In this document: piece by piece, positions 19,298-51,204 of the stretch
How the letters are laid out: every line of letters begins with the position of its first letter
Position numbering within the stretch: position 1 is the stretch's first letter
Assembly (NCBI GenBank): GCA_009691315.1
Contig: SICT01000001.1
Coordinates: forward strand, 1 to 58,766
Direction of reading: 5' to 3'
Origin: Candidatus Uhrbacteria bacterium
Lineage (GTDB): Bacteria; Patescibacteriota; Patescibacteriia; 2-12-FULL-60-25
Length of the DNA stretch: 58,766 nucleotides
Notes under the pieces: model-generated
What the model was told of the DNA's origin: nothing
Database searches by the model: none
The model's input: only the letters and a program-made list of their open reading frames with translations
Translations under genes and position numbers: made by a program

Positions 19298-19395
19298 TAC
19301 ACAATGAGCGAGCGGAGACCAGAGACTGTTTCGTGGACTCACCGTGCAAACGGGGATGTCCAGGAAATAGGCTCTGGTAGGCCGCGAGACAACAG

Positions 19396-22674: not shown

Positions 22675-22695
22675 ACTTTTTTCTTTTTTTTCTCT

Positions 22696-22732
22696 CTCCG
22701 ATCTCCGCCAGCTGGCGGATCGGAGAATTTTT
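22696..22732 (+). terminator. Rho-independent terminator of purM
   Basis: In ctccgat(ct)ccgcc-agct-ggcggatcggag I count a 12-bp interrupted stem, followed by aattttt. Confidence 0.7.
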
Positions 22733-22772
22733 ATATCCTCAATAAAATACTATAGTACTTTATTGAGGATAT
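22733..22772. repeat. 40-bp AT-rich near-perfect palindrome
   Basis: In atatcctcaataaaatacta|tagtactttattgaggatat I count 19 of 20 positions as complementary. It sits between the purM and purQ terminators. Confidence 0.8.
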
Positions 22773-22782
22773 ATTGAAAAAC

Positions 22783-22814
22783 AAAAAATCTCCCTTTGCA
22801 TAAAGCGCTGGGAG
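22783..22814 (-). terminator. Rho-independent terminator of purQ
   Basis: On the minus strand the stem CTCCC-N15-GGGAG is followed by aTTTTTTg, 14 nt after the stop. Confidence 0.5.
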
Positions 22815-22827
22815 AAAGAAAAATGAA

Positions 22828-23574
22828 CTACAGGTTTCGTGCGGCTGCCACGGCATTCTGGAAAATCTTGAGGCCGTGCGGCGGTTCCATCCACCGGCTG
22901 CGCCAGTTGGGATGTTGGAGGGGATCAACGAAACGTTCCGGATGGGGCATGAGCCCGAAAATCCGGCCCGATGGATCACACACGCCAGCAATGGCGTTTT
23001 CCGAACCATTGGGATTGTGTGGAGCGTAGCGAAGGGCTACGAGCTTGCGCTCTTCGATCTGCACAAGCGTTTCCGGTGAGGCAAAAAATCTGCCTTCACC
23101 GTGGGCGATTTGCAGAGAAATTTCGCTTTCCATCCCGCGCGTGAACACGCACGGACTTCCCTGCTCGACCACCATCCTGACCCACTCGCACTGGAAACGT
23201 CCGGAGACGTTGTGTGTGAGAGTCGCGGACATTTTGCCTAGTTCGCGAAACGGCAGGAGACCGGTCCGCACCAAGACTTGAAATCCGTTGCAGATGCCGA
23301 TGACGAGCTTACCCGCCTCAACAAAGGCACGGAGTTCGTCGGACAGAAACGTGGTGAGCTCGAGCGCCAGGATCTTGCCCGAAGCCACGTCATCGCCGTA
23401 GGAAAATCCGCCGGGAATGGCCAGAATTTGGAAATCTGCCAACCGAACGGATCGTGCACGCAATTGATTGATGTGCACAAGTCTGGGATTACCACCTGCT
23501 CGCATGAAGGCGTAAGCCGTCTCACGATCGCAGTTTGTGCCGTCGGTCTGCAGAATGCATACACGCGGGTTCAT
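22828..23574 (-). CDS. purQ: Phosphoribosylformylglycinamidine synthase, glutaminase subunit
   Basis: I trimmed the ORF to the ATG at 23574, which forms an ATGA overlap with the purL stop. The sequence contains MNPRVCILQTDGTNCDRE..., the nucleophile context ...GICNGFQ... and ...HGEGRF. Confidence 0.9.
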   Translation of the reverse strand: MNPRVCILQTDGTNCDRETAYAFMRAGGNPRLVHINQLRARSVRLADFQILAIPGGFSYGDDVASGKILALELTTFLSDELRAFVEAGKLVIGICNGFQVLVRTGLLPFRELGKMSATLTHNVSGRFQCEWVRMVVEQGSPCVFTRGMESEISLQIAHGEGRFFASPETLVQIEERKLVALRYAPHNPNGSENAIAGVCDPSGRIFGLMPHPERFVDPLQHPNWRSRWMEPPHGLKIFQNAVAAARNL

Positions 23575-26438: not shown

Positions 26439-26476
26439 CTCTCGGCCTCCTTGGCACAAGTGTCTGGTTTCGAAGA

Positions 26477-26673
26477 ACACCGTTCGAATATCGAACGGTG
26501 TCCGGAGCCTAACCTGTTTCTATTTTTGTGGCAATTTGATTCTTTGGGCTCAGATTCCTCCTCTTTTGGAAAGAGGAGGTGAGGAGGAGTTAAAAACAAA
26601 AGGGTTATGTGGTACCAGGTACCAATAATCTCCGGTTTTTAACTCCCTCGATCCCTCTTTCCACAAAGAGGGA
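26477..26673. repeat. Cluster of four strong hairpins in the secF-purL spacer
   Basis: H1 is acaccgttcga-ata-tcgaacggtgt (26477-26501). H2 is cctcctcttt-tgg-aaagaggagg (26557-26579). H3 is ggagttaaaaac-N37-gtttttaactcc (26586-26646), with ggtaccaggtacc in its loop. H4 is tccctcttt-ccac-aaagaggga (26652-26673). H2 and H4 share the CCTCTTT/AAAGAGG stem. Confidence 0.8.
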
Positions 26674-31893: not shown

Positions 31894-31922
31894 TTGACCT
31901 TTGTTTGACTATTTGCTTAACT
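31894..31922 (+). promoter_or_regulatory. Sigma-70-like promoter for the Met/Cys-rich lipoprotein gene
   Basis: The signal is TTGACC-N17-TTAACT. It is followed by a ~110-nt leader with several short hairpins. Confidence 0.4.
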
Positions 31923-32035
31923 CTGTCTTCCGGAGTAATCTGGAGTTAAGCGAAGCGGGATCAATGTGGTCCCGCCTCGATGCACCTCGAGAAAAAATCC
32001 GACCTGCGACAGCGGGCGGTAGAAAGGGACTGAAA

Positions 32036-32680
32036 ATGATGATCCGAAACGTCTCTCTCCTCTGCCTCGCGCTCGCCGCAGGTTCGGCCTGCAGCGCCCC
32101 GGACATGATGCCCCCACCCGGAATGATGGGTGACGGGCCGGACATGGCCAAGGTCGTTCCTCCGGGATCCGACCTCGCCGGCATGATGATGACCGGCGGC
32201 GACATGGTGATGAACGCCAATGCCTGTGCTTCTTGCGTCATGGGTCAGACCATGCTGAAGGATTGCATGGACATGATCAGTTACTGCATGGACAAGGCTA
32301 CGGACACGAACCAGTGCCCCAAGACCTGTTCATGCGGTTTCGACCTCCCAGGCGGGGAGTGTCCCATGGGCAAGCCATTCAACTGGACCATGCAAGTCGT
32401 GGGCCAGACCTGGTCGTGCGATGGTCAGCCTGCGTTCGAACCCAAACAGTTGAGCCAGGATGGCGAGCCACTACGCGTGGACTTCCACATGGGCGGTGAT
32501 ACTAATCACGCGACTTGTGTGGGAGACTCATGCTGGTACCGAGCATCATATTCCCCACTTCTTAAGGTGGCGCGTGTTCGATTCACGAGTGCAACTTCGG
32601 CCGTGATCGAATCGTGGCCCAAAGGCTGGGACGTTTCGACGAAACCTGGAGGTATCGTCGGTAATTGTACGCAGTTCTAA
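32036..32680 (+). CDS. Met- and Cys-rich lipoprotein (putative metal-binding)
   Basis: I trimmed the ORF to the ATG-ATG at 32036, which is preceded by aaaggga. MMIRNVSLLCLALAAGSAC has a lipobox. It is followed by MMPPPGMMGDGPDM...AGMMMTGGDMVM and many Cys. The gene is GC-rich. Confidence 0.65.
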   Translation: MMIRNVSLLCLALAAGSACSAPDMMPPPGMMGDGPDMAKVVPPGSDLAGMMMTGGDMVMNANACASCVMGQTMLKDCMDMISYCMDKATDTNQCPKTCSCGFDLPGGECPMGKPFNWTMQVVGQTWSCDGQPAFEPKQLSQDGEPLRVDFHMGGDTNHATCVGDSCWYRASYSPLLKVARVRFTSATSAVIESWPKGWDVSTKPGGIVGNCTQF

Positions 32681-32751: not shown

Positions 32752-35700
32752 CTAACCTATTGTTTCTGCACAAATATCATTAAAGATTACACAACCCACG
32801 GGACAATGAGGTGCTGAATACTCCTTACAATTTCTGAGTCCACAGTATGGATTGTTAACATCAGTATTAACACAACCAATGGGACAATTAGGTTTTTTGT
32901 ACGCACTGCAATTAGGTCCTGGTTGAGGTGTTTTGGACTTAAGATTCTCATCTTCCTGTGTTTGCAATTCACCACTTGAACGTAGTTGCAATGATCCTGG
33001 ATACACGATCCAAGGACGATAGTTCTGCGTATATCCACTATTCAAACTCTGAAAATCTGGATTTGTTGAATTGCATTCGTTATTCAATAGCCTACCGAAT
33101 GTTGCCCGCACCTCGTTAGTAGATTTAATTGTACCTTCTCGTATTCCATCAGCTAGTCCCCAAGAATAACAGCCACCATATGGATGTAAAACTTCATTAT
33201 CAGATCCATCATCCTGTAACTGATTATCTTTAATCTTGGTCCGACACTCTCCTGAACACCAGCCCCAATTATCTTGCAGCATAACGCGCGGAGTAAAGCG
33301 GCATGCATTTACTTTTTTATCCCAACAACCACGGTTTGGAGCCAATCCCGTTGGAATACAGATGTCCCCTGCTGCACAACGGAGTGGGATATTGCCTATT
33401 TCCTGTTGCGGTGTTGTACAACCGCGATTCGGATCTCGGGAACAACGTCCTTCCAAAAATTTCTTCGGTTCTTGCTGTTGATTCACAGGCCACTCAAATT
33501 CGCACGCGGGCAGATCGCCCGTGCCGCCGCAATAGTATTGGTGGCTGAATTCGAAATAATTGGGCTGGCAAGCCTCACCACTATTACCGAAGAACGTACG
33601 GTATATACATTGATCTTTAGCTTTGCCAATCGTGCAATCAGAGTCAGAATGACAAGTTTTGTATTGTTTTTTGGAACAGGTGCCGAGCGGCGCACAACGA
33701 CCCGCACCAGCGGGACAATCAACATCCGTATTGCAGGTGATTCCCCATCCGCGGATCGGATCATCACACTCGCTCTGAGTTGCGCAGAATGGTTTATGAT
33801 TTTTCAAGCTTGCATCAGCAATTTTTTGCTGAAACCCATCCCCCCAATCAACGGTCACGTTCTTGAGCGGCATCTGCTCATGACTGGCCCAACCATAAAA
33901 CTTGAGAGAGGCTTTATGCTGACCGCCAGCAGCATTCACAGCACCATCGGATTGACCATCAAAAGAGAACATATCTAAGCGTTGAATGGAGCATTGGCCA
34001 GGCGTGTCACACTTGCGGGCATCAGGTGCCGCAATCCGTGGTGGATGAGGGGTGTAGTAGGCAATGGTGTCAGTGAATTGCTGAATCCGAGGAACATCTG
34101 CTGGAATAGGATCATAGCCTAAAAATTGAGGGGTGTAGTGCCCAGGTGTGACATTGGTCGGAGGAAGGTTATCCGAAAGGAACGGATCCAAACCTTCTTG
34201 TTTGCCGTTTATGTTCTTCGTAAAATTATAAACTGTTAATCCGCACGATTCATCGCTTGGATCCGGACATTGTTTTATATCGGGTTGATATTCGGTTCCG
34301 GTCCATTGATATATGCGATAAATTTTGGCGAACAGATTTGTCAGATAGTGCCAAGATCTGCCATAAGGAGGGACATTGAGCTCAACGAATCCTTTTGGAT
34401 CATTTGGATCAGGCACTTTACAGCACGTTTCTTTTCGAAAGAAACTCCCGATTCCGGCACCCAAGAAAGTTGGTGGCTTCAGGGAAGAGAATCCAGCCAC
34501 ATTCCCACCGCTTTGGAACAACGGATCTGTTCCAGCCGGTCCGGTATTTAACGCGCTCGAAAATGGGGCGAAACGAGAACCATATTGAAATCCAACACCG
34601 GGAGCCGTAAAATTTCCGTTCTTCCACACACGATCGGTAAAAGCGGCATTTTGACGAGAGTCACGACTGATGACTTCCGCGAGTTGCGTACAAATACTCC
34701 CATAATTAACCTTGATATTCATATAGATATATCTCATATCATTTGCCTGACCTCCACAGGTCGAGACCCAAAATCCCTGTAAACTCCACGGGCCATTGAC
34801 AGCTTTAGACTGAAACACCCCCCGAATGGAAAAGTAAGGTTTATCACTGGTACATTTTTCCGTATAAGCAGTTGATCGAATATGACTTAATTGACGTTTG
34901 ACACTGCTGGCATCAGGCGGATCAAACGGTTTCAGCGAATCTTTAAAGAGAGAAATGAAGTTTGTTTGCCCGCTACTCCGATAATCCGTTTGCCAAGTCT
35001 TCATAAAGCACTTGCCTGGCTCATTCACACAATCCACTTCCAAAGGTTGCCCTTGAGATCCTTTGAACAGGGTATCAGCTCCTCGACCCAGAATAGGCTT
35101 ATAGTTCTCAAAAAATTTCTGTCGCCATTCCACATCCTTGGCCTTGGTGCTATCCCCTTCATTATAATCTACCTCCCCTAAGCCATCGACCCAGTCCGCT
35201 TGATATCCGCAGGCTAAACGGCCCATATCATTTGGATTTTCGATCGGGGAAATGCTGATATAGGCCAGGCTCTTATCTTTATTGTCCCCACCATTGAATT
35301 CTAGTATTGGTTTCTCCAATTGAAAAAATGTTTCGGTATAACTTTGATCTGGACTACTTCCAGCATCAACCAAACGTACAGCCGAAAGATCACGGTCATT
35401 GTCTCCCTCATCTTGATCATCATCTGCCAACTCACACTGCTCGGCGTTTGGACTGAATTCAGGACGATCCCCCACGAGCGAAGCACCTGGATATCCCCCA
35501 ACGGCCGAGTCTCTGCCATTTGATGTGAAATTATCATCGTAATTGAATTTGAACATACTCCCAGCATAATTAGAGTCTGGCTTACCTTCATTCTGCTTTT
35601 TTTCATCATGTTCACCAACAAAATCCACATCCGTTAAAGAACGCGCGCTCGGTGGATCAGCTTTTGATAAACAGTAGTACTGGCCTGAATTTTCTGGCGG

Positions 35701-38700
35701 GAAATAGCCGGCCGTCGGCACATAATGATAGGGATCTTTTTCCCCAAACAAAATTGGCGTTGGATTCCACGTTAAGCATGGGTGCTGAGTCACATCATCT
35801 CCAGTAATGCGTGTCATGTCGCGCTCCAAACATTGTCCAAAAATTCCGTTGACTATTTGCGATTTACGGAAAGCCACGCATCTCCCGCCTTGTTCCGGTG
35901 GTCCGCAGGTTTGAGAGGCATTAGACCCTTCAATCGCCAATTTCTGTGGATTTTTTGGATCTGTCTGCGGTATTTTAAATATCGCTTCCGGCAAACACGA
36001 CTGTCCGGCGCGCGGTCCGCCCGCGCACACCCCGGGCAAAACATGTGAAGAAAACACATCGTAAAACTTGATGATACCGGCATCTGGATATTCCACACGT
36101 TTATAACTGCAAGCACAATCTTCACCGTATTCACAGATGTTGGCTCCGGTAAAACTGGTTAACCGTTGTTTCGGTTGAGCAGGATTTTTGGACGTATCCC
36201 AATCAATCGCATACGAAGAAGGGAATGGAGCATCCGCTTCCGGATAAGCTCGACACTCCGCACTCGGAAATGCCTGACTCAAAGCCTGATCATGGGTTGG
36301 ATTAGGCTGAGCAAATTTTAAAGTCACATTCTGAAAATCTAAGCCAGTGTCTTTGGCATTGACCGCCACATAGCAAAGGAATGAACGGCCTGAACTTAAG
36401 GCTTGCAAGTATTCATTCAAACGATAATACCCAATTCTCCCAGTGCCAACATGCTTACACAAAAACAGTTGAGGATTCGCTTTAGACAACGGGTCTTCTT
36501 TATCGAGCTTGATTGCTTCATAGCTCTTGGGACTTGGGTTCAAAAGGAATTTATTTGGATTCTGAGGATCCACGATTACTGGGATGACAATAGCAGCGGC
36601 CAAACGATAATCCAAGGCAAACCGATATTTGTTATTTGCTACATTCCCTGCCCCATCCGCACCAGGTTTCGCCGTGGTCAGGTCCGGCACCTGAAATGAA
36701 TTCGGGATGGTGTAACCAGAATAATCATTTTCCCCCAAACCGATCCTCCGACTCGCGTATTGGTTGACGTCAAAGAATGCGCCGCGGGTCAGCGTTGGTT
36801 CCGTACTCGTCGTCGCACGATTCACATAATGTGCGCAGAAAATATCACCGTTCTCATGGCTCGCCTGATCGCATAACGCCAAATTCGTACAAATATCTTT
36901 ATATTTATTGCTGCTGCGATCAAACACTGTTTCGGCACTCTTACACCCCAACCACTGCGAACAATCACGATCCACGTTTACTTTAATCAACAAATTGGCA
37001 TCATTTTCTCTCGTTCCTCCAGGCTTACTGCACGATCCTGTAAAATCGTGGGTATGAGTCAATAAAACCGGGTTAATAATCTCTTTATCAACAATCTTAT
37101 AATTACATTCCGCATCCCGTTCACACACATTGCCTTCCCATGGATTGATCTTTGTATCCACAACCCCCAGAAAATTGGTCGTGACAATCGTTTCCTGTCC
37201 CTGACACTTCTTGGCTTGACAATTTGCATCCTTTGATCCCAAACAACTCACAGGCGTGGTGGGCGTAAACAATTGATCGCGATATTTTGCATAACTGGCA
37301 GACACGTTGTAACTCAATTGCGTATCACTCAAATTATTCAACAAGATACAGCCCTTCCCAACATCTACACTCCCATTACACGTGGCGGTATCAAATTTCT
37401 GCGGATCATAAATAAAGAAGTATGGCTTACCGGTTTTATGTGATGGATCTGATACATCATTTGGATCGCGCAATTCCGAACACTCCCCTTGATCCTGCGG
37501 ACACAACCCTCCCCATCCCTGATATTCCGTGTCACCTGTGCGCAGAAGATTAAACGTCTGACCGTTTTCCAAGACCAGCGGATAACACGGAAGCGTTGTC
37601 CCCTTCTCAAACCAACCAGAATAGGTACCGACCGCTAAATTTTTAATCCCTGAATTATCTCCGGTTAATGGAACATTCTCTTTATATTCACAGGTGTGAT
37701 TTCCTGGATCGCGGAAATATTCTTTTCCTCCGGTCGCCGGATTAAATTCCTGACAAAAAAGTTCAGATGGCCGGCACAAACCCTGATCGTATTTCGTAAT
37801 GTCATCTTTATAATAAACCGTGGCGAACGTGGATGTCGCATCCAAACTCAAACGATTTTGGGTATATTTTGGTTTTCCAAACGCCCGGCACGAGGCATTT
37901 TCTGGTTGACAATGTTTGCTCGGATCATCAATCAAATACAAATAGCGATCGGCCGAACGGGTGGTTGTTGCGCCACCAAATCCTGGAATCACTGGTTTGT
38001 CTTCCATAACGAATGTTTGTTCACCCGTGTCAGCTGAATTCCGCGTATCAATAAATCCAGTACAGCTGATCGCCTGTTGACGACACAAGCGCGAGAACTG
38101 ACGAATGTCTACTTTTTGCCCATCGCGCCGCTTGTATTCGCGACAACCTAGCATGGCTTGCGGTTGAGGGACTCCGCCTAATCCGGTATCACACTCATTC
38201 GGTGTCTTCCAAGTATTGGCTCGCACATAGGCCATATCCGGAATAAGAGTCACCGTTACTTCATCCAGATAAACAAGAGGCGTCGCAGCACTCCAAACGA
38301 GCGCGGTTAGCTTACTCCCACTCCAACCATTAAACGGACCCACCGAATATCTCTGCCAATCCGGTGTCAGATTCACCGTACCGACCACGGTCTTTTTTCC
38401 TAAATCTTTTGGATCTGCTGTTGATACGAACAATGGAACAGAGCTGGTCGCGGCTGGTCCTTTGGCCCAAAAGGTCACGCGGAATAAGTCGGTCGGAGTT
38501 GAAGTGACAGATACGCTCGCCTGTACAATCTTGTCTTGCGGCTTATTTTTTGCTGGGATCCGCAACGACGAATCACCGACTAAAAGTGATTCACTTGATT
38601 TTTCTCCACCGACAAACGCCCCAATCCCATCTCGAAAATTTTGTGCCAAGACCGTTTGCATGTTACCAGACTCTGCTCCCGCATAAGCGCGACAAGAAAT

Positions 38701-41700
38701 TGCTTGTGCACTACACACCCGACTTTCCGGGGCAAACAACGAATACACACACTCCCCTGTGGATGCCTGAAACGTTCCACCTGTTTTTTTACAGTCATCT
38801 ATATTCCGATTGTTCAAACGATAATCTTTACACTGATCCGTCGATAACACGGTCTGAGAATAATAACGATAAAAAACATGGCCATCCGCATCGTAAAATT
38901 GTCGGCAATCCGGATCAACGCCGCTCCGCCAATTGGCTTCACTACACGTTTTTGGGTCTTTAAAACTTACCTGATCTGGACCACGTTTGAGCAACAGAAG
39001 TGGCCCGCCAGCGACTTCCCCGGGCAAAACATTGGCATTTGGATCTTGCTTCATGCTCCAACTACGTAATTGAAATCCGGCGGTGTCTGATCCTTCCCAG
39101 GTAAAAAATGTTTTGGAATTTTTATCTGGCTTTTCACAGGCGCGTACATAACTATAGTAAGCCGTCCGCTCACCGCCACCTGCACTCGCCTCCACATTGG
39201 TAAATTCTTCACAACCGACTTGCTCCTGTGTACAGGCTTGAGCTGTGGCAGGAATAAAAAAGTCTGTCGCTGTGTCCGTAGGATCATCAAACTCTTTTAT
39301 ACTGTCATGTACCAAATCAAATGCTGACGGTTGTTTTCGATACTGGGCATAGCTGACACAGGTTTCCGGACAATAATCATTTGTACCGACAATCGCTGGC
39401 ACTTCTCCGCCTGCCAGCACATCGGTGTAGCCCTGACAGCCGGCTTCTGACTGACGACAGACTTGAGCAAATTTTGCACACAATGGATGATCCTTGCCTT
39501 CTCCACGGCAATTGAGATCTTCTGGCGCAAGTTTCATAAACGTCGCTGGCAAACTAGCATTCAACCCCGATGCAAATGGCGTAGCAAGCTCGCCTTCTTC
39601 CAATTGCAAAGCGTCTAGTAAGGCTGGCGAATTTTTATCATCTTGAGATAAGCTCATCACCGCGAAACGTGCATTGGCCGCGCTCAAAAAACTACATTCA
39701 TAGCGTCGCCAGTCTGTCGTAAGAGCCGGATGAGCACGTAAATCAACACTCTCAACTCCGAGTCCAGCTGGTTCACAGCCCGAACTACGAAAATCTTTAA
39801 TCGTAGCCGCCTTATCTATCATCAAATTTTTCTCCGTATATTGAATGATCTGCGCTTTAAATGATTCATTGCCCCCATCTTTTGTTCCACGTGCATAGAC
39901 AGAGAAGGTATACATGCGTCCGGAAGTAATTGCCATTTTTTGAATAATCGTTTTACCAAGCGACAACTCTAAAGCAGAGGCTGTATCAAATGAGGCCGTT
40001 CCACTCGCGACTTGGGGAATCGTGAAAGGGGTACCCGGCGACCAATTGGCCAGAGTTGGGGTCGATGTCCCAACGGCATTTTCAAATGAAGGATTCTGAA
40101 TCAGATTTAAGGCTGAATCACCAATTTGAAATGAATGGACCTTCGTACAACCTTCGTCTGATCCAGAACATGGCGCCAACGTCTTATCAAAGTAGATACG
40201 TGGGCCGGTTGAGGTCGTTCCCACCCACGCATCCGTACTTGTACTCAAAGCATTGCGCGTCGTCGCATACCACAAACATCCGACATTGCTAGCATCACAC
40301 GTTCCGTAATCCAACGTATTGCGCAGATAGGAAATCGCCCCGCCTCCAGGAGCTTGATAATTGCGACAGCTGGAAAAACGTGCCGGACATTCTTCGGCCT
40401 GAAAACGATAAACCGTTTTTTCTGCCATGCAGTAACCATAACCGCCCGTACACTCACCTTGATTGTTCCGCTTAAGACAGGTTTGAATGTCCTGACACTC
40501 TTCCCGACGCTGATTGATAGATGGAGATAAAAGCGTATCGCCAAAACCAGACAGCGTGCATTGTTGAGGAAACGACGTGATGACCCAGTTCGCATCAATC
40601 AAATGACACCATGGATATTTGGCATCACGCTGGCCCTGCGGATTGCACACGGAAAATCCTTTCACAACTTCAGACAACGTGGCACAACCACTAGAAGAGT
40701 TACACAAAGCCTGATTTTCCGCCGAATTCGCCGCCAGCTCAAATCCCACAGACAAAATACGCGCCAGTCGTAATTTCTGCAGATTGCCCGCACAGTAAGC
40801 TGTGTTAAAACAGTTCGGATCCTGATTCAGCTTGGTCATGCTGGTTGGAATCAGTCTGCGCGATCCATCCAAGAAACCTTTGCCCATCGCTTCGCCAACC
40901 GTAAAAGATCCCTGCTCACCCTGGCTCTGGACGGCCTGAATGAATTTTTGATCAATCGTACAATTCCACAAACCACGATAATCACTTGGACAACCTGAGA
41001 ACTCCGATACCACATCCACTTGCGCGACTTTTTGCAGGTTGGGCGTCTTCAAATCAATGTTCGCCGCACGCGCATCGGTTTTTCCTGCCGTCACAATCGC
41101 ATCTGGATTCGCCGCGACGTTCTGCCGCACGGCATCGGAATAATCAAAGGCACCGGTAAACCCTTTATCAAAAATGCGCTTCATGAATTTGGAAGCAAGC
41201 GTGTTCAAAAAAACCGAAGCCGTATAACTCGCCAACTGGATCGGACCTTCTTTAAACGCATTGCCCAAAATCGCTCCGGTTTGCGCAATCTGCGAAGCAT
41301 TGCCTTTTCTCACCGTTTCTTCTTTTGTCGCTTCAGACACGACTTCGCTCGGCGTTTTGACATTGCCTGAAATAATCCCGGAGACATCTTTAAACCCTTT
41401 GCCAACCTCACGTTCTTTCGTCGCAAAGGATACGGCATCCGTTGTTTTTAAAGTGACAGAATTCAAAATATTTACCGTGGCCCCAAGCTCACTCGTATTC
41501 GTATTCAAATTAAAATCAATCGTCGGATAGGTTTCCGCTTTTGTTAACGACGAGCCAAATGAATTCCAATTGTTAATCACATTCTGAAATTCACATTTTG
41601 GTTTTTGCGGTGAGTACTGCCCCTGACCAACACCAGACTGCGGGAAAAAATTACCCAGTGACAATTGGATCTTCAGCAGGTTGCTGGTATTGGGCTTACA

Positions 41701-42141
41701 CAAATTAAATCCAATATTCTTAAAAAATTCTGAATCTGACAATGAACCCATGGCCTCGCCCACCGCATCCTTGCCCACATCTGTCATGTTTTTCGCAAAA
41801 TTTTTGGTAAAAAACTGTGCCCCCTGACCCTTGCCACCTGACACAATATAGTTCGCCGCTTCATAGGCAAGACGACCTACTAAAAGCTGGGCCGCATTAA
41901 AAAAAGCCACAACCAGAGCACGGGTAATCTGAGAAATGATCGTCTTATAAGTGCTGTTAGCTGTTTCTGGCAGGTTGGCCATAACTGCACTTGGCATACC
42001 AACGCCAGTAACCGGCGGAGCATTCTCCGGCTGAGCTAACGCAAACTCTACAGATGGGCCGGCTAAACTCACACAAACAACCATAACAATCAACACCGAT
42101 TGCATGGCGCGAAAAAAAATCGAAGAGCGATTAATCTTCAT
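32752..42141 (-). CDS. Giant (3129 aa) secreted cysteine-rich surface protein with CBM4/9-like jelly-roll modules
   Basis: It is a single uninterrupted ORF with an N-terminal signal or anchor (SVLIVMVVCVSLAGPSVEFALA). A CBM-like module starts ...NLIQNPSFENAVG... and ends ...LLDALQLEEG (aa ~678-855). A second beta-sandwich-like module lies at aa ~1163-1300 (...YLDEVTVTL). A VTVDWGDG motif lies near the C-terminus. Cys is extremely frequent after aa ~380. Confidence 0.85.
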   Translation of the reverse strand: MKINRSSIFFRAMQSVLIVMVVCVSLAGPSVEFALAQPENAPPVTGVGMPSAVMANLPETANSTYKTIISQITRALVVAFFNAAQLLVGRLAYEAANYIVSGGKGQGAQFFTKNFAKNMTDVGKDAVGEAMGSLSDSEFFKNIGFNLCKPNTSNLLKIQLSLGNFFPQSGVGQGQYSPQKPKCEFQNVINNWNSFGSSLTKAETYPTIDFNLNTNTSELGATVNILNSVTLKTTDAVSFATKEREVGKGFKDVSGIISGNVKTPSEVVSEATKEETVRKGNASQIAQTGAILGNAFKEGPIQLASYTASVFLNTLASKFMKRIFDKGFTGAFDYSDAVRQNVAANPDAIVTAGKTDARAANIDLKTPNLQKVAQVDVVSEFSGCPSDYRGLWNCTIDQKFIQAVQSQGEQGSFTVGEAMGKGFLDGSRRLIPTSMTKLNQDPNCFNTAYCAGNLQKLRLARILSVGFELAANSAENQALCNSSSGCATLSEVVKGFSVCNPQGQRDAKYPWCHLIDANWVITSFPQQCTLSGFGDTLLSPSINQRREECQDIQTCLKRNNQGECTGGYGYCMAEKTVYRFQAEECPARFSSCRNYQAPGGGAISYLRNTLDYGTCDASNVGCLWYATTRNALSTSTDAWVGTTSTGPRIYFDKTLAPCSGSDEGCTKVHSFQIGDSALNLIQNPSFENAVGTSTPTLANWSPGTPFTIPQVASGTASFDTASALELSLGKTIIQKMAITSGRMYTFSVYARGTKDGGNESFKAQIIQYTEKNLMIDKAATIKDFRSSGCEPAGLGVESVDLRAHPALTTDWRRYECSFLSAANARFAVMSLSQDDKNSPALLDALQLEEGELATPFASGLNASLPATFMKLAPEDLNCRGEGKDHPLCAKFAQVCRQSEAGCQGYTDVLAGGEVPAIVGTNDYCPETCVSYAQYRKQPSAFDLVHDSIKEFDDPTDTATDFFIPATAQACTQEQVGCEEFTNVEASAGGGERTAYYSYVRACEKPDKNSKTFFTWEGSDTAGFQLRSWSMKQDPNANVLPGEVAGGPLLLLKRGPDQVSFKDPKTCSEANWRSGVDPDCRQFYDADGHVFYRYYSQTVLSTDQCKDYRLNNRNIDDCKKTGGTFQASTGECVYSLFAPESRVCSAQAISCRAYAGAESGNMQTVLAQNFRDGIGAFVGGEKSSESLLVGDSSLRIPAKNKPQDKIVQASVSVTSTPTDLFRVTFWAKGPAATSSVPLFVSTADPKDLGKKTVVGTVNLTPDWQRYSVGPFNGWSGSKLTALVWSAATPLVYLDEVTVTLIPDMAYVRANTWKTPNECDTGLGGVPQPQAMLGCREYKRRDGQKVDIRQFSRLCRQQAISCTGFIDTRNSADTGEQTFVMEDKPVIPGFGGATTTRSADRYLYLIDDPSKHCQPENASCRAFGKPKYTQNRLSLDATSTFATVYYKDDITKYDQGLCRPSELFCQEFNPATGGKEYFRDPGNHTCEYKENVPLTGDNSGIKNLAVGTYSGWFEKGTTLPCYPLVLENGQTFNLLRTGDTEYQGWGGLCPQDQGECSELRDPNDVSDPSHKTGKPYFFIYDPQKFDTATCNGSVDVGKGCILLNNLSDTQLSYNVSASYAKYRDQLFTPTTPVSCLGSKDANCQAKKCQGQETIVTTNFLGVVDTKINPWEGNVCERDAECNYKIVDKEIINPVLLTHTHDFTGSCSKPGGTRENDANLLIKVNVDRDCSQWLGCKSAETVFDRSSNKYKDICTNLALCDQASHENGDIFCAHYVNRATTSTEPTLTRGAFFDVNQYASRRIGLGENDYSGYTIPNSFQVPDLTTAKPGADGAGNVANNKYRFALDYRLAAAIVIPVIVDPQNPNKFLLNPSPKSYEAIKLDKEDPLSKANPQLFLCKHVGTGRIGYYRLNEYLQALSSGRSFLCYVAVNAKDTGLDFQNVTLKFAQPNPTHDQALSQAFPSAECRAYPEADAPFPSSYAIDWDTSKNPAQPKQRLTSFTGANICEYGEDCACSYKRVEYPDAGIIKFYDVFSSHVLPGVCAGGPRAGQSCLPEAIFKIPQTDPKNPQKLAIEGSNASQTCGPPEQGGRCVAFRKSQIVNGIFGQCLERDMTRITGDDVTQHPCLTWNPTPILFGEKDPYHYVPTAGYFPPENSGQYYCLSKADPPSARSLTDVDFVGEHDEKKQNEGKPDSNYAGSMFKFNYDDNFTSNGRDSAVGGYPGASLVGDRPEFSPNAEQCELADDDQDEGDNDRDLSAVRLVDAGSSPDQSYTETFFQLEKPILEFNGGDNKDKSLAYISISPIENPNDMGRLACGYQADWVDGLGEVDYNEGDSTKAKDVEWRQKFFENYKPILGRGADTLFKGSQGQPLEVDCVNEPGKCFMKTWQTDYRSSGQTNFISLFKDSLKPFDPPDASSVKRQLSHIRSTAYTEKCTSDKPYFSIRGVFQSKAVNGPWSLQGFWVSTCGGQANDMRYIYMNIKVNYGSICTQLAEVISRDSRQNAAFTDRVWKNGNFTAPGVGFQYGSRFAPFSSALNTGPAGTDPLFQSGGNVAGFSSLKPPTFLGAGIGSFFRKETCCKVPDPNDPKGFVELNVPPYGRSWHYLTNLFAKIYRIYQWTGTEYQPDIKQCPDPSDESCGLTVYNFTKNINGKQEGLDPFLSDNLPPTNVTPGHYTPQFLGYDPIPADVPRIQQFTDTIAYYTPHPPRIAAPDARKCDTPGQCSIQRLDMFSFDGQSDGAVNAAGGQHKASLKFYGWASHEQMPLKNVTVDWGDGFQQKIADASLKNHKPFCATQSECDDPIRGWGITCNTDVDCPAGAGRCAPLGTCSKKQYKTCHSDSDCTIGKAKDQCIYRTFFGNSGEACQPNYFEFSHQYYCGGTGDLPACEFEWPVNQQQEPKKFLEGRCSRDPNRGCTTPQQEIGNIPLRCAAGDICIPTGLAPNRGCWDKKVNACRFTPRVMLQDNWGWCSGECRTKIKDNQLQDDGSDNEVLHPYGGCYSWGLADGIREGTIKSTNEVRATFGRLLNNECNSTNPDFQSLNSGYTQNYRPWIVYPGSLQLRSSGELQTQEDENLKSKTPQPGPNCSAYKKPNCPIGCVNTDVNNPYCGLRNCKEYSAPHCPVGCVIFNDICAETIG

Positions 42142-45750: not shown

Positions 45751-46266
45751 TTATTTTAAAACTTGGTAGTGTAGTTGGATGGTATGTATGTTTATTTTTT
45801 TTACCTCTAACAACTCTAAATCAACTGCAAAATCTCCTTCGGCAAAAATAGGGATCCCCTGACCAAACACGAACGGTTCAACATCAATGTAAATTTCATC
45901 GATCAATTTTTCTTTGATGAACGAACGGTTTAACTGACCGCCGCCGGCTAAAAATGCCGTGGTAAATCCTCTCGCTTCCAAAAGACGCAAAATTTCTTGT
46001 GGCGGCTTATCTGTGGTCAATACCCTATCATTCCAGGTATTTTTTATTGGTTCGTGTGAAACGATAATATTGAGAGCTTCTGGGAATGGAAAATATCCGT
46101 ATCGCAAGGCTTCCAGATAGGTGTTCTTCCCCATAATAATATTTCCTGCGGACTTACTGTGCTCAAAAAAACCTTTTAAATCTTCCTCGGACGTCCACTG
46201 GGAATTGCCGTCTTTCTTGGCAATGAATCCATTAACAGACATCCCCATGTAGAGAACTGTTTTCAT
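45751..46266 (-). CDS. Dihydrofolate reductase-family protein (RibD C-terminal-like)
   Basis: MKTVLYMGMSVNGFIAKKDG......F....SAGNIIMGKNTYE pattern and ...AFLAGGGQLNRSF... are typical of the RibD_C/DHFR-like family. Confidence 0.75.
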   Translation of the reverse strand: MKTVLYMGMSVNGFIAKKDGNSQWTSEEDLKGFFEHSKSAGNIIMGKNTYLEALRYGYFPFPEALNIIVSHEPIKNTWNDRVLTTDKPPQEILRLLEARGFTTAFLAGGGQLNRSFIKEKLIDEIYIDVEPFVFGQGIPIFAEGDFAVDLELLEVKKINIHTIQLHYQVLK

Positions 46267-46270
46267 AAAA

Positions 46271-47497
46271 TCATTCTCCCTTCATCGCCTCTGCTATCCG
46301 CTCAATTGCGAGAATAAATGCGGCTTCGCGTTGCGTCGCGCCATATTTTTCAGCGGTTGAAATCACATCTTGTGCGGCCTGACGCATAAGAGGCTCTAAG
46401 CGTTGAAACACCCTTCCTTCGTCCCAATGTTCCCCAATTTTATTTTGTTGCCATTCGAGAAACGAGGTTGTGACACCACCGGAATTCGCTAACACATCCG
46501 GGATGACCGTCACGCCATGCTTGGCAAAATACGCATCGGCTTCTGGTGTAGTCGGGCCGTTCGCCAGTTCTAAAATCATTTGTGCTTGCACACGCGGCGC
46601 AATCTCAGCGGTCAATTGATTTTCTAAAGCTGATGGCACAAGTAAACCACATGGGAGAGTCAGAAGCTGCTCCTGAGTCAGCGTCTCTAAATTATTGAAA
46701 CCTGTAACACTTCCCGTCTTTTTCTTGTGTTCGATCACCCCCGGAATATCCAAACCATGTTCTGAATGAATTCCTCCTTTAGAATCTGAAACAGCCACTA
46801 CTTTGTATCCGTGATGATGAAAAATTTTCGCCATAGTTTCACCAGCATTGCCAAAACCCTGAATAACAACGCTGAGCGATTCAGGATCCACGCCGAATTT
46901 TTGACGATACACATCAAACACATAAAATCCGCCTTGGGCGGTGGCCGTGCCGCGACCCTCTGATCCACCTTTACCGACCGTCTTACCTGTCACTACTGCA
47001 AGATCTTGATGTCCAATCACCTTCCCGTATTCATCTGCCAGCCAATCCATAATCTGTGGCGTCGTATTCACGTCTGGTGCCGGAATGTCTTTGTCAGAAC
47101 CGATACAATCTGCGATCGCACGGGTGAACGCACGTGTCAGTCGCTCCAGCTCGCCAGAAGATAATTCTTTCGGATTGACCGTCACGCCACCCTTGCCACC
47201 GCCAAACGGAATGCCTGCAACGGCACATTTGATCGTCATCCAAAATGCGAGTGCCTTTACTTCATCTAAATCAACCTGCGTATGAAAACGCAAACCTCCC
47301 TTAAACGGACCACGTACATTATTCCACTGCACCCGATAACCATGAAAAAATCTGGTGGAACCATCATCCATCACGATGGAAAACTCAACATTGATCGTCC
47401 GCGCTGGATGATGGAGAGCGTCGAGTGTTTTTGGATCAAGCGGCGCAATCGTTGCGGCCAGATCTAATTGCCGCATGGCATTGGTAAAAGCGGACAT
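46271..47497 (-). CDS. gdhA: Glutamate dehydrogenase (Glu/Leu/Phe/Val dehydrogenase family)
   Basis: I trimmed the ORF to the ATG at 47497. The motifs are ...RGPFKGGLRFH... and ...PFGGGKGGV..., with the Rossmann motif GFGNAG. Confidence 0.9.
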   Translation of the reverse strand: MSAFTNAMRQLDLAATIAPLDPKTLDALHHPARTINVEFSIVMDDGSTRFFHGYRVQWNNVRGPFKGGLRFHTQVDLDEVKALAFWMTIKCAVAGIPFGGGKGGVTVNPKELSSGELERLTRAFTRAIADCIGSDKDIPAPDVNTTPQIMDWLADEYGKVIGHQDLAVVTGKTVGKGGSEGRGTATAQGGFYVFDVYRQKFGVDPESLSVVIQGFGNAGETMAKIFHHHGYKVVAVSDSKGGIHSEHGLDIPGVIEHKKKTGSVTGFNNLETLTQEQLLTLPCGLLVPSALENQLTAEIAPRVQAQMILELANGPTTPEADAYFAKHGVTVIPDVLANSGGVTTSFLEWQQNKIGEHWDEGRVFQRLEPLMRQAAQDVISTAEKYGATQREAAFILAIERIAEAMKGE

Positions 47498-47501
47498 AAA
47501 A

Positions 47502-48419
47502 TTAATGCGATAAATATTTTTCTGCATCAAGCGCGGCCATACAACCAGTTCCGGCAGCGGTGATAGCCTGACGATAGCGTGGGTCCTGTAAATCACCAGA
47601 CACAAACAGGCCGGGCACATTCGTCATCGTGGTTCCCTTTACGACACTCACATATTTTTTCTCATCCAAATCCACCAAGCCCTGAAGTAATCGCGAATTC
47701 GGTTCATGACCAATTGCGGCAAACACCCCGTCGATTGACAGATCATGTATCTCACCCGTCACCGTGTCTTTAAGACGCGCACCCGTCACATGACCAACAT
47801 CCACACCGAGAATTTCGATAACCTCTGCATTCCAAATCACTTTTATTTTTGGATTGGCGAACGTGCGGTCTTGCATGATTTTTGAAGCACGAAATTCGGC
47901 GCGACGATGCACGATGGTGACTTCGCTGGCAAAGCGGGTCAAGAAATTTGATTCTTCCATAGCGCTGTCTCCCCCGCCCACCACGATCACTTTTTTCTGT
48001 TTGAAAAAAAATCCATCACACGTCGCACAGGCAGACACGCCGTGACCGTAAAGCTTCTTCTCTGATTCTAAACCTAAACGCCGCGCCTCTGCTCCTGTGG
48101 CCATAATCACGGTTCTTGTTTGATAGGTCTGACCTTTGCTTGCGACTTCAAATCCCCCATCAATAATCTTGAGTGACTCAACCTGCTCTGTTTTAATATC
48201 TGTCCCAAATCGTTTAGCCTGCTCACGAAAACGCTGCATTAATTCAGGACCCTGAATACCTTCGGGGAAACCCGGGAAATTTTCTACATCCGTTGTTGTC
48301 ATTAACTGACCGCCCGGTTCGTTACCTTCAAATAAAATCGGTGCCAAACTTGCCCGCGCCGCATAAATCGCCGCGGTCCATCCAGCCGGTCCAGACCCAA
48401 TAATGATCACGTCAATCAT
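47502..48419 (-). CDS. trxB: Thioredoxin-disulfide reductase
   Basis: GSGPAG is the FAD motif, CATC is the redox centre ([11 protein letters not shown]) and GGGDSA is the NADPH motif. Confidence 0.93.
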
Positions 48420-48798: not shown

Positions 48799-48827
48799 TT
48801 GACTCATAATCAAAACTCACGTATCAT
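48799..48827 (+). promoter_or_regulatory. Sigma-70-like promoter for the first beta-CA-like gene
   Basis: The signal is TTGACT-N17-TATCAT, ending 53 nt before the ATG. The RBS is aggggggg. Confidence 0.5.
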
Positions 48828-48880
48828 TTTGTCCCAAAACGTACCTTCCACTCACAACCACTCACCCTTAGGGGGGGTCC

Positions 48881-49402
48881 ATGAAGCGATATCTGATAAT
48901 CGGCCTCGTCTCCGCTGTCACCCTGTTCGCCGCACTCAAGGCTGGCCCGCTCAAGGCGGAACGTCCAGCTGATCGAGCGGTGGTGGCATTGTTCTGCTCA
49001 GACTCCAGGAATGGACGATTCAAGCAAGATCTGGAAACCCATCATCCGGGATTCGTGGAGCACAACGTCCACGTCTACGAACACCAGGTCCCCGGATCGG
49101 CTATCTACGACATCATCCATGCTCACCCGGCCGTTCGGGAGCATGTGATCGAACAGATTACCATCCTACTAAGAAAGGCTCAGAAAGAGGGCGCTTCGGC
49201 TGCCATTGCCCTGGCCTATCATGAAAAGTGCGCTCGCTACCCCCAAGGCCATGAACAGGAACAGGAACGAGACGGCCTCGCAGCAAAGCATTTGCTCGAG
49301 GATCGTCTCAAGGATCTGCACCCGCAGATCCTCCTGTACAAGGCACATATGGATGATTCTCATATCACCGAGATCGAAATCATCGAACGGCCACGGCCGT
49401 GA
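48881..49402 (+). CDS. Beta-carbonic-anhydrase-like protein 1 (signal/TM anchored), highly divergent
   Basis: FCSDSR (C39-x-D41-x-R43) and HEKC (H114-x2-C117) match the C-x-D-x-R ... H-x-x-C zinc-site pattern of the beta-CA fold. The N-terminus is hydrophobic and the gene is GC-rich. Confidence 0.5.
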   Translation: MKRYLIIGLVSAVTLFAALKAGPLKAERPADRAVVALFCSDSRNGRFKQDLETHHPGFVEHNVHVYEHQVPGSAIYDIIHAHPAVREHVIEQITILLRKAQKEGASAAIALAYHEKCARYPQGHEQEQERDGLAAKHLLEDRLKDLHPQILLYKAHMDDSHITEIEIIERPRP

Positions 49403-49415
49403 ACCATTCTCTTCT

Positions 49416-49453
49416 CTCCCAAATCTGCCAAAGCGGATGAGGGAGCTTTTTTT
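49416..49453 (+). terminator. Terminator-like hairpin after beta-CA-like gene 1
   Basis: The stem ctccc...gggag has an internal atc/gat extension and is followed by cTTTTTTT. Confidence 0.45.
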
Positions 49454-49463
49454 AATATTAATC

Positions 49464-49492
49464 TTGACCGGTAGAAAAAAATCACATATAAT
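49464..49492 (+). promoter_or_regulatory. Sigma-70-like promoter for the second beta-CA-like gene
   Basis: The signal is TTGACC-N17-TATAAT. The RBS ggagga lies 5 nt before the ATG at 49544. Confidence 0.55.
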
Positions 49493-49543
49493 TTCGCAGC
49501 TTCTTCGATAAAGCTCTCTCACCTACAAGGCTCTGGAGGATCC

Positions 49544-50071
49544 ATGGGTACCGCAGCAGCACATTCAACCGACGCGGATCGCTGTCAGGCGACTGCCTTC
49601 TTCTGCAGTGACTACCGTCACTGGAACGGGCCACTGAACATCTCGCAGGCTCTACGATCGCTCGTCGGGCATGCAGGATTCGACAAAATCGCAAAACCCG
49701 GAGCAATCCATGCTCTGGTTCATGGCGAGGAACATCATCGCCGCGCCATCCTGGATGATCTCAGCGACCTCGTGTCGCTGCATCAACCCGAATGGATCTA
49801 TCTCATCCCCCACACCGATTGTGGAAAATATCGACTCAGCTTTGGGCAACGAGACGAAGCTGAGCAGCGCCAGCAGCTGATCCAGGATCTGGCGACAGTC
49901 ACCACCCTGATCCTCAGATACTACCCATTGGTCAGGGTCCGGTCGTTCATCGCCGTGATGAAGCCCGACACCCTGAGCGATCTGGAAGAGGTGACCTCCT
50001 TGGTCGCCGCTCATATCGCCTCCCTACCTTCTTCCATGAACGATGATCAAGATCATCGAGGCACGGACTAG
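49544..50071 (+). CDS. Beta-carbonic-anhydrase-like protein 2, highly divergent
   Basis: FCSDYR (C21, D23, R25) and HTDCG (H90, C93) are present. KPGAIHAL sits at the position of the R-x-AGN strand. Confidence 0.5.
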   Translation: MGTAAAHSTDADRCQATAFFCSDYRHWNGPLNISQALRSLVGHAGFDKIAKPGAIHALVHGEEHHRRAILDDLSDLVSLHQPEWIYLIPHTDCGKYRLSFGQRDEAEQRQQLIQDLATVTTLILRYYPLVRVRSFIAVMKPDTLSDLEEVTSLVAAHIASLPSSMNDDQDHRGTD

Positions 50072-50184
50072 ACAGGTTCTTTCATCCTTTCACCGTCACG
50101 CCATGTGCCGGTTTTTTTATTCTTGCCTAAATCCTTGCTTTTCTTTATTCTAGCGGTCTGTTCTATCAAGACTTCATCAATCCT

Positions 50185-51204
50185 ATGCCTACACTTCACC
50201 AACGCATCCTTGAAATTAACGCGGAAAAATCAATGCAATACACTACCGACGAATCTGCCCGTAATCGTTATTGGGCCAGTCATCCAACCTTTTTTGCCTG
50301 CATTAAATGTATGGATGGCCGGGTAAATTTTCCGGTCATGACCAAAACACCCGTCGGGATTGTAAAACCATTTCGGGCGATTGGGGGAAAATTCGAGGCC
50401 TGGTGGCCAAGTTTTTTAGGCCGCGTGCGACACTGGGTAGAGAAAGCGGAATCCATGGGTTGCCGAAGTTTTATTTTTGTTACCTACCACTATAGCGCCA
50501 GTGATGCACATTTAGGTTGTGCGGGCTGGAAATATGATACCAAAGCCGCCCGCGCCCATGCGGAAAAATTACAACAAGAGCTTTCTTATATTTTTGGAGA
50601 ACAGATGACGGCCATTGTCGCAGGTGTTGAGACGGATCATGATCTTTTGACACTTCATGGCCCGCACGCAGACCTCTCCGGGGAGATGCTTGCGGGCAAA
50701 AGTGAGGCAGAGGTCTACCAAACGATTGCCTCGATTTTTCCAGACATGAATCAGCAAACCAATCATGATCTGGCACCATTTTTATTGGGCAATGCCGGGC
50801 GGGTAGAAGAACTCACTCGTCAACCACGAGACCTCAAACAAAAAGGTCACAATGAACGGATTATTGCCGTAGGTCAAGGATTTGACTGGCTGGTGGAAGA
50901 AAATCTCGCACTCATCATCAACGACGCGGATCCAAATTTAGCCGACTCCATCCGCGTTGCCGGATCGTTGATTGAAAAGAATTTAAAAGATGCTCCTCCC
51001 GGAGATGACGCCACGATTTTTACCTCGATCCCTTATCGCAATCCAGGCCTGGATTATCGGCAAGCTGTGGTCCGATCACAAGGCCTGCGCTTATTTGCCG
51101 AACGAGTCCTGCAAGAATCTTTTCCTGATCTCATGAAATCTGGTCGATTACACTCTCTCGCGGCTGTGATGTGGGAGGCAAACAAAAAAATCGAAATCAT
51201 CTAA
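50185..51204 (+). CDS. Beta-carbonic-anhydrase-like protein 3 (339 aa, with an extra C-terminal domain)
   Basis: CMDGR (C42, D44, R46), FRAIGG, and HLGC (H109, C112) within YHYSASDAHLGCAGW are present. The start is uncertain, with an alternative ATG 16 codons downstream. Confidence 0.5.
   Translation: MPTLHQRILEINAEKSMQYTTDESARNRYWASHPTFFACIKCMDGRVNFPVMTKTPVGIVKPFRAIGGKFEAWWPSFLGRVRHWVEKAESMGCRSFIFVTYHYSASDAHLGCAGWKYDTKAARAHAEKLQQELSYIFGEQMTAIVAGVETDHDLLTLHGPHADLSGEMLAGKSEAEVYQTIASIFPDMNQQTNHDLAPFLLGNAGRVEELTRQPRDLKQKGHNERIIAVGQGFDWLVEENLALIINDADPNLADSIRVAGSLIEKNLKDAPPGDDATIFTSIPYRNPGLDYRQAVVRSQGLRLFAERVLQESFPDLMKSGRLHSLAAVMWEANKKIEII

Follow-up and report, generated by a model that had tools for sequence, protein, structure and literature searches.

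Three consecutive genes for predicted beta-carbonic-anhydrase-fold proteins in Candidatus Uhrbacteria: a CsoSCA2 and two divergent Pro_CA_2-type relatives

The first 58,766 nucleotides of the Candidatus Uhrbacteria contig SICT01000001.1 (assembly GCA_009691315.1; hereafter, the window) carry three consecutive forward-strand genes for proteins, here named P1, P2 and P3, that resemble beta-carbonic anhydrases (beta-CAs). The open reading frames (ORFs) span 48881–49402 (P1, 173 residues), 49544–50071 (P2, 175 residues) and 50185–51204 (P3, 339 residues), exactly as listed in the initial annotation, which had been made from the nucleotide sequence. That annotation had pointed to C-x-D-x-R and H-x-x-C motifs in all three proteins, and both are present at the spacings it gave: CSDSR at residue 39 and HEKC at 114 in P1 (75 residues apart), CSDYR at 21 and HTDC at 90 in P2 (69 residues), and CMDGR at 42 and HLGC at 109 in P3 (67 residues). 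The motifs are not chance matches, because they coincide with invariant columns of each homologue family. Profile searches, structure prediction and residue conservation all support their reading as the zinc-ligand signature of the beta-CA fold, with an adjustment to one ligand of P3 that is described below. P3 is CsoSCA2, a compact, non-carboxysomal relative of the carboxysomal carbonic anhydrase (CA) CsoSCA. Judged from their sequences, P1 and P2 belong with the divergent single-domain, Cab-like beta-CAs of the Pfam family Pro_CA_2.

The assignment of P3 is supported at the levels of sequence, conservation and predicted structure. The protein passes the Pfam model CsoSCA_cat (32.2 bits, cut-off 21.5), and a phmmer search of the PDB matches it to the solved CsoSCA (PDB code: 2FGY) with an E-value of 7e-6. 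It fails the NCBIfam carboxysomal equivalog TIGR02701 (37.6 bits, cut-off 241). The phmmer alignment places C42, H102 and C112 of P3 onto the CsoSCA zinc ligands C173, H242 and C253, and H222 onto H397 (the numbering of the 2FGY construct is offset by 28 residues). Across an alignment of 68 P3 homologues, C42, D44, R46, H102, C112 and H222 are invariant. H109, the histidine of HLGC, is the majority residue at its position and not an invariant one. The initial annotation had taken H109 as a ligand of P3; it is replaced here by the invariant H102, which sits in a YHYS sequence and aligns with H242 of CsoSCA. With H102 as the ligand, the Cys-to-His spacing of P3 is 60. The AlphaFold2 (AF2) model of P3 has a predicted local distance difference test (pLDDT) score of 94.2, and Foldseek aligns it, with both domains covered, to the CsoSCA structures 8THM, 9G4T and 2FGY at a template-modelling (TM) score of 0.75 and an E-value of about 5e-18.

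The chain begins with a segment of about 35–40 residues that forms two helices (residues 3–21 and 23–32 in the AF2 model), and the first strand of the catalytic domain starts at residue 36. The catalytic domain occupies approximately residues 36–189 (50290–50751, forward strand) and contains the predicted zinc ligands C42, H102 and C112 together with the D44–R46 dyad. A second beta-CA-like domain, delimited from the translation and its secondary structure, spans approximately residues 190–339 (50752–51201, forward strand) and bears the invariant H222. This C-terminal half is considered defunct because it has no cysteine. The roughly 200 additional residues that had been remarked on in P3 are thereby accounted for, since the C-terminal half corresponds to the second beta-CA domain of CsoSCA, which is likewise defunct. 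In all, 323 homologues of P3 were found; its nearest relatives, 67–72% identical (72% for the nearest), are encoded in metagenome-assembled genomes of Patescibacteria and Uhrbacteria.

The CsoSCA2 proteins were described in 2022, with Candidatus Uhrbacteria among their hosts (PMC9164163). P3 agrees with the compact form reported there in its two-helix N-terminus of about 35–40 residues, its active and defunct domains with all catalytic residues, its location outside a carboxysome locus, the absence of a Rubisco-binding peptide and a host range that includes Uhrbacteria. There is no material difference, and P3 is a new member of the group. The same source notes that compact CsoSCA2 may not have the homodimer contacts and that other complexes are conceivable (PMC9164163). 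With the carboxysomal enzyme, an epsilon/beta-CA (2FGY, 8THM and 9G4T), P3 has in common the two-domain, pseudo-dimeric beta-CA fold, the Cys/His/Cys zinc ligands, the Asp–Arg dyad and the equivalent of H397, a proposed proton shuttle (preprint 10.64898/2026.05.01.722082). It differs in having no N-terminal domain of about 144 residues and no Rubisco-binding peptide, in its shorter loops and in an overall identity of only about 18%. The same preprint reports that CsoSCA is the closest structural homologue of DabA; unlike DabA, which has a leucine at this position, P3 keeps the H397 equivalent.

P1 and P2 are considerably more divergent. For each of them a word-indexed search returned, out of 5.8 billion protein clusters, only the query itself, and the NCBIfam models gave nothing useful for either. 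A precomputed table assigns PF20393.4 (Pro_CA_2) to P2. An exhaustive HMMER search with a profile built from P1 and P2 recovered 43 remote relatives of 130–200 residues. In the joint alignment of this family, numbered here as in P2, R25, G53, H90 and C93 are invariant; C21, D23, D47, H80 and Y96 are each conserved in at least 90% of the sequences. Pro_CA_2 is matched by 42 of the 45 family members at E-values of 0.01 or below, and Pro_CA by 8 of the 45. A family hidden Markov model (HMM) built without the window proteins scores P2 at 153 bits and P1 at 59 bits, in a test that is not fully independent, as the relatives had been recruited by the P1 and P2 profile in the first place.

The family profile also matches solved beta-CAs, namely 6JQD, 6JQC, Cab (1G5C), Rv1284 and carbon disulfide (CS2) hydrolase, and its C-x-D-x-R motif, PG glycine and H-x-x-C motif align with the corresponding positions of these enzymes. 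The glycines thus align where the initial annotation had seen a PG in the place of the AG of beta-CAs. It had likewise judged the ligand spacing to be longer than canonical, and indeed 69–75 residues separate the two motifs in P1 and P2, against 55 in Cab-type enzymes, because of an insertion of about 12 residues between the PG and the H-x-x-C motif relative to Cab. The AF2 model of P2 has a pLDDT of 91.4, and all 50 of the PDB matches listed for it by Foldseek are beta-CAs. On these grounds P2 (49544–50071, forward strand) appears to be a cytosolic, Pro_CA_2-type single-domain protein with C21-x-D23-x-R25, G53 and H90-x-x-C93. P1 (48881–49402, forward strand), for which the beta-CA fold is suggested by the family HMM, would be a divergent protein of the same type with C39-x-D41-x-R43, G72 and H114-x-x-C117. 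The second pair of ligands would accordingly be H114/C117 in P1 and H90/C93 in P2, and H102/C112 in P3, where the two residues are arranged as H-x9-C, as in CsoSCA.

With the Pfam entry PF20393, titled 'Putative carbonic anhydrase', P1 and P2 share a single domain in the range of 130–200 residues and the motif order C-x-D-x-R, PG and H-x-x-C-G-x-Y. They depart from it in that P2 falls just below the cut-off, P1 escapes the model and P1 carries a putative export signal or anchor. With the Cab-type and clade-D proteins (1G5C from M. thermoautotrophicum, Rv1284 of M. tuberculosis as 1YLK, 3TEN and the carbonyl sulfide (COS) hydrolase 3VQJ) they share the minimal single-domain fold and the ligand motifs column for column; they are set apart by a Cys–His spacing that is about 12–20 residues longer, by identities of 10–18% and, for the P2 model, by TM scores of 0.4–0.5. 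The literature search found no experimental paper on PF20393.

The N-terminus of P1, MKRYLIIGLVSAVTLFAALKAGPLKA, reads in translation as a charged n-region followed by a hydrophobic stretch of 15 residues. Residues 1–26 (48881–48958, forward strand; MKR, the 15 hydrophobic residues and LKA) form a putative signal peptide or membrane anchor, and a P1 orthologue (P0133) has a lipobox-like LLLMGC sequence. P1 is therefore probably exported or membrane-anchored.

The three proteins had been called barely alignable, and this is borne out: BLASTP aligns P1 and P2 at 24% identity with an E-value of 0.12 and does not align P3 with either. What links the family of P1 and P2 to that of P3 is their common fold and clan; hhalign detects no direct profile similarity. 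The proposal that the genes form a paralogous set holds at the family level for P1 and P2 and fails for P3, a member of another family with this fold. Nor is this an unrecognised enzyme family, as had also been suggested. Both beta-CA-fold families are already Pfam entries, and that of P3 has a name, CsoSCA2, in the literature.

Candidate expression signals were found upstream of the first two genes. A sigma-70-like promoter candidate for P1, TTGACT-17-TATCAT, lies at 48799–48827 (forward strand; 10/12, a consensus match only), and a Shine-Dalgarno-like G-run, GGGGGGG, read from the sequence at 48871–48877 (forward strand), ends 3 nt before the start codon. For P2, the candidate TTGACC-17-TATAAT at 49464–49492 (forward strand) matches the consensus at 11/12 positions, and a GGAGGA Shine-Dalgarno site at 49535–49540 (forward strand) ends 3 nt before the start codon. 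The latter contains the joint-longest exact match (5 nt) among 42 genes checked, the other being AAGGA of the gene at 14739–15824. The consensus scan gave no promoter-like site for P3, in agreement with the initial annotation on all three genes, and a terminator scan found none between P1, P2 and P3. The promoter signals are suggestive only, since the scan of the region yielded 5 sites compared with 3.1 +/- 2.0 in shuffled sequences. A 15-nt sequence, alike at 14 of 15 positions, occurs at the 3' ends of P1 (49373–49387) and P3 (51190–51204); both copies encode 'IEII', and the P3 copy overlaps the infB stop codon. The match was rejected as evidence of an insertion scar, since we estimate that chance would yield about 0.2 of them per region.

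On one side the three genes are bounded by a divergent block encoding thioredoxin, thioredoxin reductase (TrxR) and glutamate dehydrogenase. On the other, infB is convergent with the P3 gene, the two overlapping by 8 bp at their stop codons. The neighbouring products comprise thioredoxin, TrxR, glutamate dehydrogenase, initiation factor IF-2, TruB and RNase Y. The remaining window genes recognised by Pfam, which encode ribosomal proteins, RpoA, AlaRS, SecDF, YidC, NusA and cell-wall enzymes, are those of a typical patescibacterial chromosome. Among the Pfam-scanned genes of the window, no cso or cbb genes, no sulfur-metabolism genes and no NuoL-like gene were identified, and an Rfam scan of the whole window gave no match. 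Elsewhere in the window, a homologue of TrwB/TraG-like type IV coupling proteins is encoded amid cell-wall genes (17261–19342, reverse strand). A giant protein of 3129 residues (32752–42141, reverse strand), for which Pfam returns a weak carbohydrate-binding-module match alone, is probably a surface protein.

The first two genes also stand out in base composition. As had been noted before, they are richer in GC than their surroundings (0.556 for P1 and 0.566 for P2, with 0.479 for P3, against 0.472 for the window), and the difference is carried into the GC content of third codon positions (GC3; 0.62, 0.64 and 0.45, respectively, with a window mean of 0.46). The pattern recurs in related genomes, whose loci are designated by L numbers: in 15 of 19 cases a variable beta-CA-fold gene exceeds every other gene of its locus in GC3. 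The ranking took in all ORFs of at least 150 residues per locus and counted as variable both the Pro_CA_2-like genes and the second paralogue of CsoSCA type that precedes csoSCA2; it covered the window and L001, L003–L005, L007, L008, L010, L012, L014, L016–L018, L087, L090, L091 and L093. Recent horizontal transfer was rejected as the sole cause of the high GC of P1; it is inadequate for the pattern because a positional orthologue stays GC3-rich in two diverged genomes. Candidate causes are repeated replacement in situ, a recombination hotspot with GC-biased gene conversion, and selection on codon usage. The window has a second GC-rich region, an island at 21550–26480 (GC 0.55–0.58, GC3 0.61–0.64) that encodes a PurM-like protein, PurQ and a PurS–PurL fusion. 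Genes of de novo purine synthesis are unusual for Patescibacteria, and the island looks horizontally acquired. The top GC3 of the window (0.66) belongs to a 259-residue ORF with no Pfam match (31901–32680, forward strand), which adjoins the giant protein gene.

The arrangement of P2 and P3 is repeated in sister genomes. Sixteen Uhrbacteria-like loci, the window among them, have enough upstream sequence to be informative, and in 13 of these 16 csoSCA2 is immediately preceded by a beta-CA-fold gene of the same orientation. The identity of this partner varies. It is Pro_CA_2-like with canonical motifs in L012, L016 and the window, Pro_CA_2-like with the arginine lost (CGDxD) in L004, L014 and L017, a tandem duplicate with a defunct N-terminal half in L001 and L008, a partial Pro_CA_2-like ORF in L010, and a second CsoSCA-like paralogue in L003, L005/L006, L007 and L018. 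In the tandem partner (L001 5151–5885; L008 3508–4239) the C-x-D-x-R motif is missing from the N-terminal half, and the C-terminal one is intact (CADGR followed by H-x-T-C), an architecture that is an independent parallel, in reversed order, to the active and defunct domains of CsoSCA. The pair is usually found between atpC or tgt and uvrD–dciA–mreB. Three loci have csoSCA2 and no partner (L009, L013 and L015), and two have a partner and no csoSCA2 (L093 and L090). P2 is 26–37% identical to its counterparts in the sister loci, compared with 67–72% for csoSCA2.

Locus L090 is syntenic with the window from 32.7 to 53 kb (IF-2 is 83% and TrxR 75% identical) and has, between trx and infB, the P1 orthologue P0133 alone. 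It follows that P1 is native to the trx–infB slot and that the P2–P3 pair came to lie beside it. Comparison with L090 revealed no insertion scars around P2–P3, either as repeats or in the intergenic alignment. P1 is 33% identical to its orthologue, against 63–83% for the neighbouring genes. Two further features emerged from the comparison: the DHFR/RibD_C-like and glutamate dehydrogenase genes between VanW and TrxR (window 45751–47620) are absent from L090, and the giant protein has a counterpart of 3346 residues at the syntenic place in that locus (position 1–97).

Genes of this fold, Pro_CA_2-like and/or csoSCA2, were also seen just downstream of atpC or upstream of atpB in L001, L005, L024, L091 and L093, a repeated placement at the F-type ATP synthase operon of Patescibacteria. 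In the patescibacterial locus L091 (5001–7300), two tandem Pro_CA_2 genes (174 and 141 residues) are followed by a gene for a 397-residue protein that does not resemble CsoSCA2 and is matched by no Pfam model. The literature search found no description of an upstream partner gene of csoSCA2, and PMC9164163 mentions neither such a beta-CA-fold partner nor a link to NuoL-like proteins. The variable gene upstream of csoSCA2 appears to be new, as do the GC3 richness and very fast evolution of the partner genes.

Outside the Uhrbacteria-like clade the company of csoSCA2 is different. Genes for NuoL/M/N-like proteins (Pfam Proton_antipo_M) occur within 3.5 kb of csoSCA2 in 28 of 68 non-Uhrbacterial loci, often with gaps of only 20–40 bp. 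In the Geobacteraceae, csoSCA2 comes after a single NuoL-like gene of about 669 codons and is separated from it by a few tens of bp at most (loci of this type: L028, L031, L048, L051, L053, L057, L061, L063 and L071). Nitrosomonas and Sulfuricaulis have csoSCA2 preceded by two or three NuoL/M/N-like genes, joined in the Sulfuricaulis type by a NuoB-like gene. The linkage is also seen in L056, L060, L064 and L085 and in L025, L027, L035, L037 and L055; L025, from an Uhrbacteria genome, has a csoSCA2 paralogue followed by NuoB-like and NuoL-like genes. SulP permease genes (PF00916) flank csoSCA2 in five loci and in L009 (for example L009 4146–5873 and L066 2612–4366). The SulP family includes BicA-type bicarbonate transporters, and the SulP and proton-translocating neighbours of csoSCA2 fit a role in the handling of inorganic carbon. 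The juxtaposition of a beta-CA-fold gene with NuoL-like proton-channel subunits resembles that in the DabA/DabB and Cup/NDH-1 systems of vectorial CO2 hydration, a likeness of gene arrangement that concerns the CsoSCA2 family outside the window. The literature search found no paper describing a CsoSCA2–antiporter linkage, and the linkage of csoSCA2 to NuoL-like membrane subunits outside the Uhrbacteria-like clade appears to be new.

Taken together, these features make it likely that P1, P2 and P3 are three zinc-dependent enzymes of the beta-CA fold that convert CO2 and bicarbonate into each other, with P1 acting extracellularly and P2 and P3 within the cell. In the catalytic domain of P3 the metal would be held by C42, H102 and C112, with the D44–R46 dyad positioning the zinc-bound water; the Cys-free pseudo-domain would complete the active site and supply H222. 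In P1 and P2 the ligands would be the cysteine of C-x-D-x-R and the histidine and cysteine of H-x-x-C. All three proteins would then catalyse CO2 + H2O <-> HCO3- + H+ through a zinc hydroxide. With P1 at the cell surface and P2 and P3 in the cytoplasm, a very small cell could equilibrate inorganic carbon inside and outside its membrane, and metabolic CO2 could be trapped as bicarbonate, to be used in carboxylations or to buffer the pH.

Several results weigh against this interpretation. P2 scores 27.6 bits with Pro_CA_2 (PF20393.3), where the gathering threshold is 30. P1 is matched by no Pfam model and lacks two near-invariant residues of its family, D47 and H80 in P2 numbering. The TM scores of the P2 model to solved beta-CAs reach only 0.4–0.5. 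In the comparison of the P1/P2 family with the P3 family, hhalign returned nothing (probability 2%). CsoSCA2 is described as 'yet to be studied' (PMC9164163). No carboxylase was identified among the Pfam-scanned genes of the window, so that the physiological rationale for the three enzymes is generic. Finally, sequence cannot fix the substrate of P1–P3, because COS and CS2 hydrolases have the same set of ligands.

A purely coincidental origin of the motifs, in proteins without the beta-CA fold, could appeal to the non-significant pairwise BLASTP scores and the failure of hhalign between the families; it is effectively refuted by the agreement of Pfam, the PDB profile search, AF2 with Foldseek and motif conservation. 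It is very unlikely that P1 and P2 are horizontally acquired passengers, dispensable or decaying, beside P3 as the sole functional resident enzyme. Their GC3 values resemble those of the purine-biosynthesis island, neither has relatives in the word-indexed search, and the Shine-Dalgarno site and promoter of P2 are atypically strong for this genome, all of which would suit a foreign origin. Yet every catalytic residue of P1 and P2 is intact and corresponds to the invariant columns of the family, both reading frames are undamaged, P2 folds confidently in AF2, and the positional orthologue of P1 in a related genome argues against a recent arrival.

The remaining alternatives accept the fold and concern what the proteins do. 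P2 and P3 might constitute a two-component module, either as a hetero-oligomer or as a catalytic and a modulating subunit, in which case the conserved pairing of their genes would stem from physical or regulatory coupling and not from mere redundancy. The recurrent same-strand gene upstream of csoSCA2 (13 of 16 loci) would be explained by such a module, as would the several partners that are arginine-less or half-defunct beside an intact csoSCA2; P3, with neither a promoter-like site nor a Shine-Dalgarno sequence of its own, may be co-transcribed with P2, and other complexes have been envisaged for compact CsoSCA2 (PMC9164163). We nevertheless consider such a module unlikely, as each gene occurs without the other in some loci and the partner types are heterogeneous. 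A different substrate for the same fold and metal site, such as COS, CS2 or another small heterocumulene, is most plausible for the fast-evolving P1 and P2 and on the whole quite unlikely. There are precedents in the CS2 and COS hydrolases among the clade-D relatives of beta-CAs, and the P1/P2 profile matches the CS2 hydrolase 3TEN (E-value 0.003) and, weakly, the COS hydrolase 3VQJ (E-value 1.1). The insertion of about 12 residues could reshape an access tunnel, and three CAs in one minimal genome look redundant. The best solved matches of the same profile are, however, bona fide CAs (6JQD, 6JQC and 1G5C), the window has no sulfur-metabolism genes among those scanned, and CsoSCA2 retains all catalytic residues of CsoSCA, including the equivalent of H397. 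CO2/bicarbonate interconversion by P1, P2 and P3 thus remains the reading we prefer.

A broader and rather doubtful proposal may be added. The Uhrbacteria-like loci could represent a dedicated module for inorganic carbon, made up of a conserved CsoSCA2 as catalytic core and a rapidly diversifying, GC3-rich partner subunit that is sometimes exported, its diversification perhaps driven by recombination and tuned to host or environment. More broadly still, CsoSCA2 could be a free-living ancestor or cousin of DabA; in Geobacteraceae, Nitrosomonas and some Uhrbacteria it might provide the CA head for proton-coupled CO2-hydration complexes of the NuoL type.

What the window contributes is limited to new and divergent members of families already known. 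Both families are catalogued and uncharacterised, and biochemical data of any kind would be a first for them. The carboxysomal CA is presumed to have arisen from the CsoSCA2 pool. Three concrete, testable leads are the conserved gene pairing, the unusual base composition of the partner genes and, in other organisms, the tight linkage of csoSCA2 with NuoL-like genes. Patescibacteria have tiny cells of a symbiotic type and a minimal metabolism, and three beta-CA-fold genes in a row suggest that the handling of inorganic carbon or protons matters more to them than current reconstructions of Patescibacteria assume.

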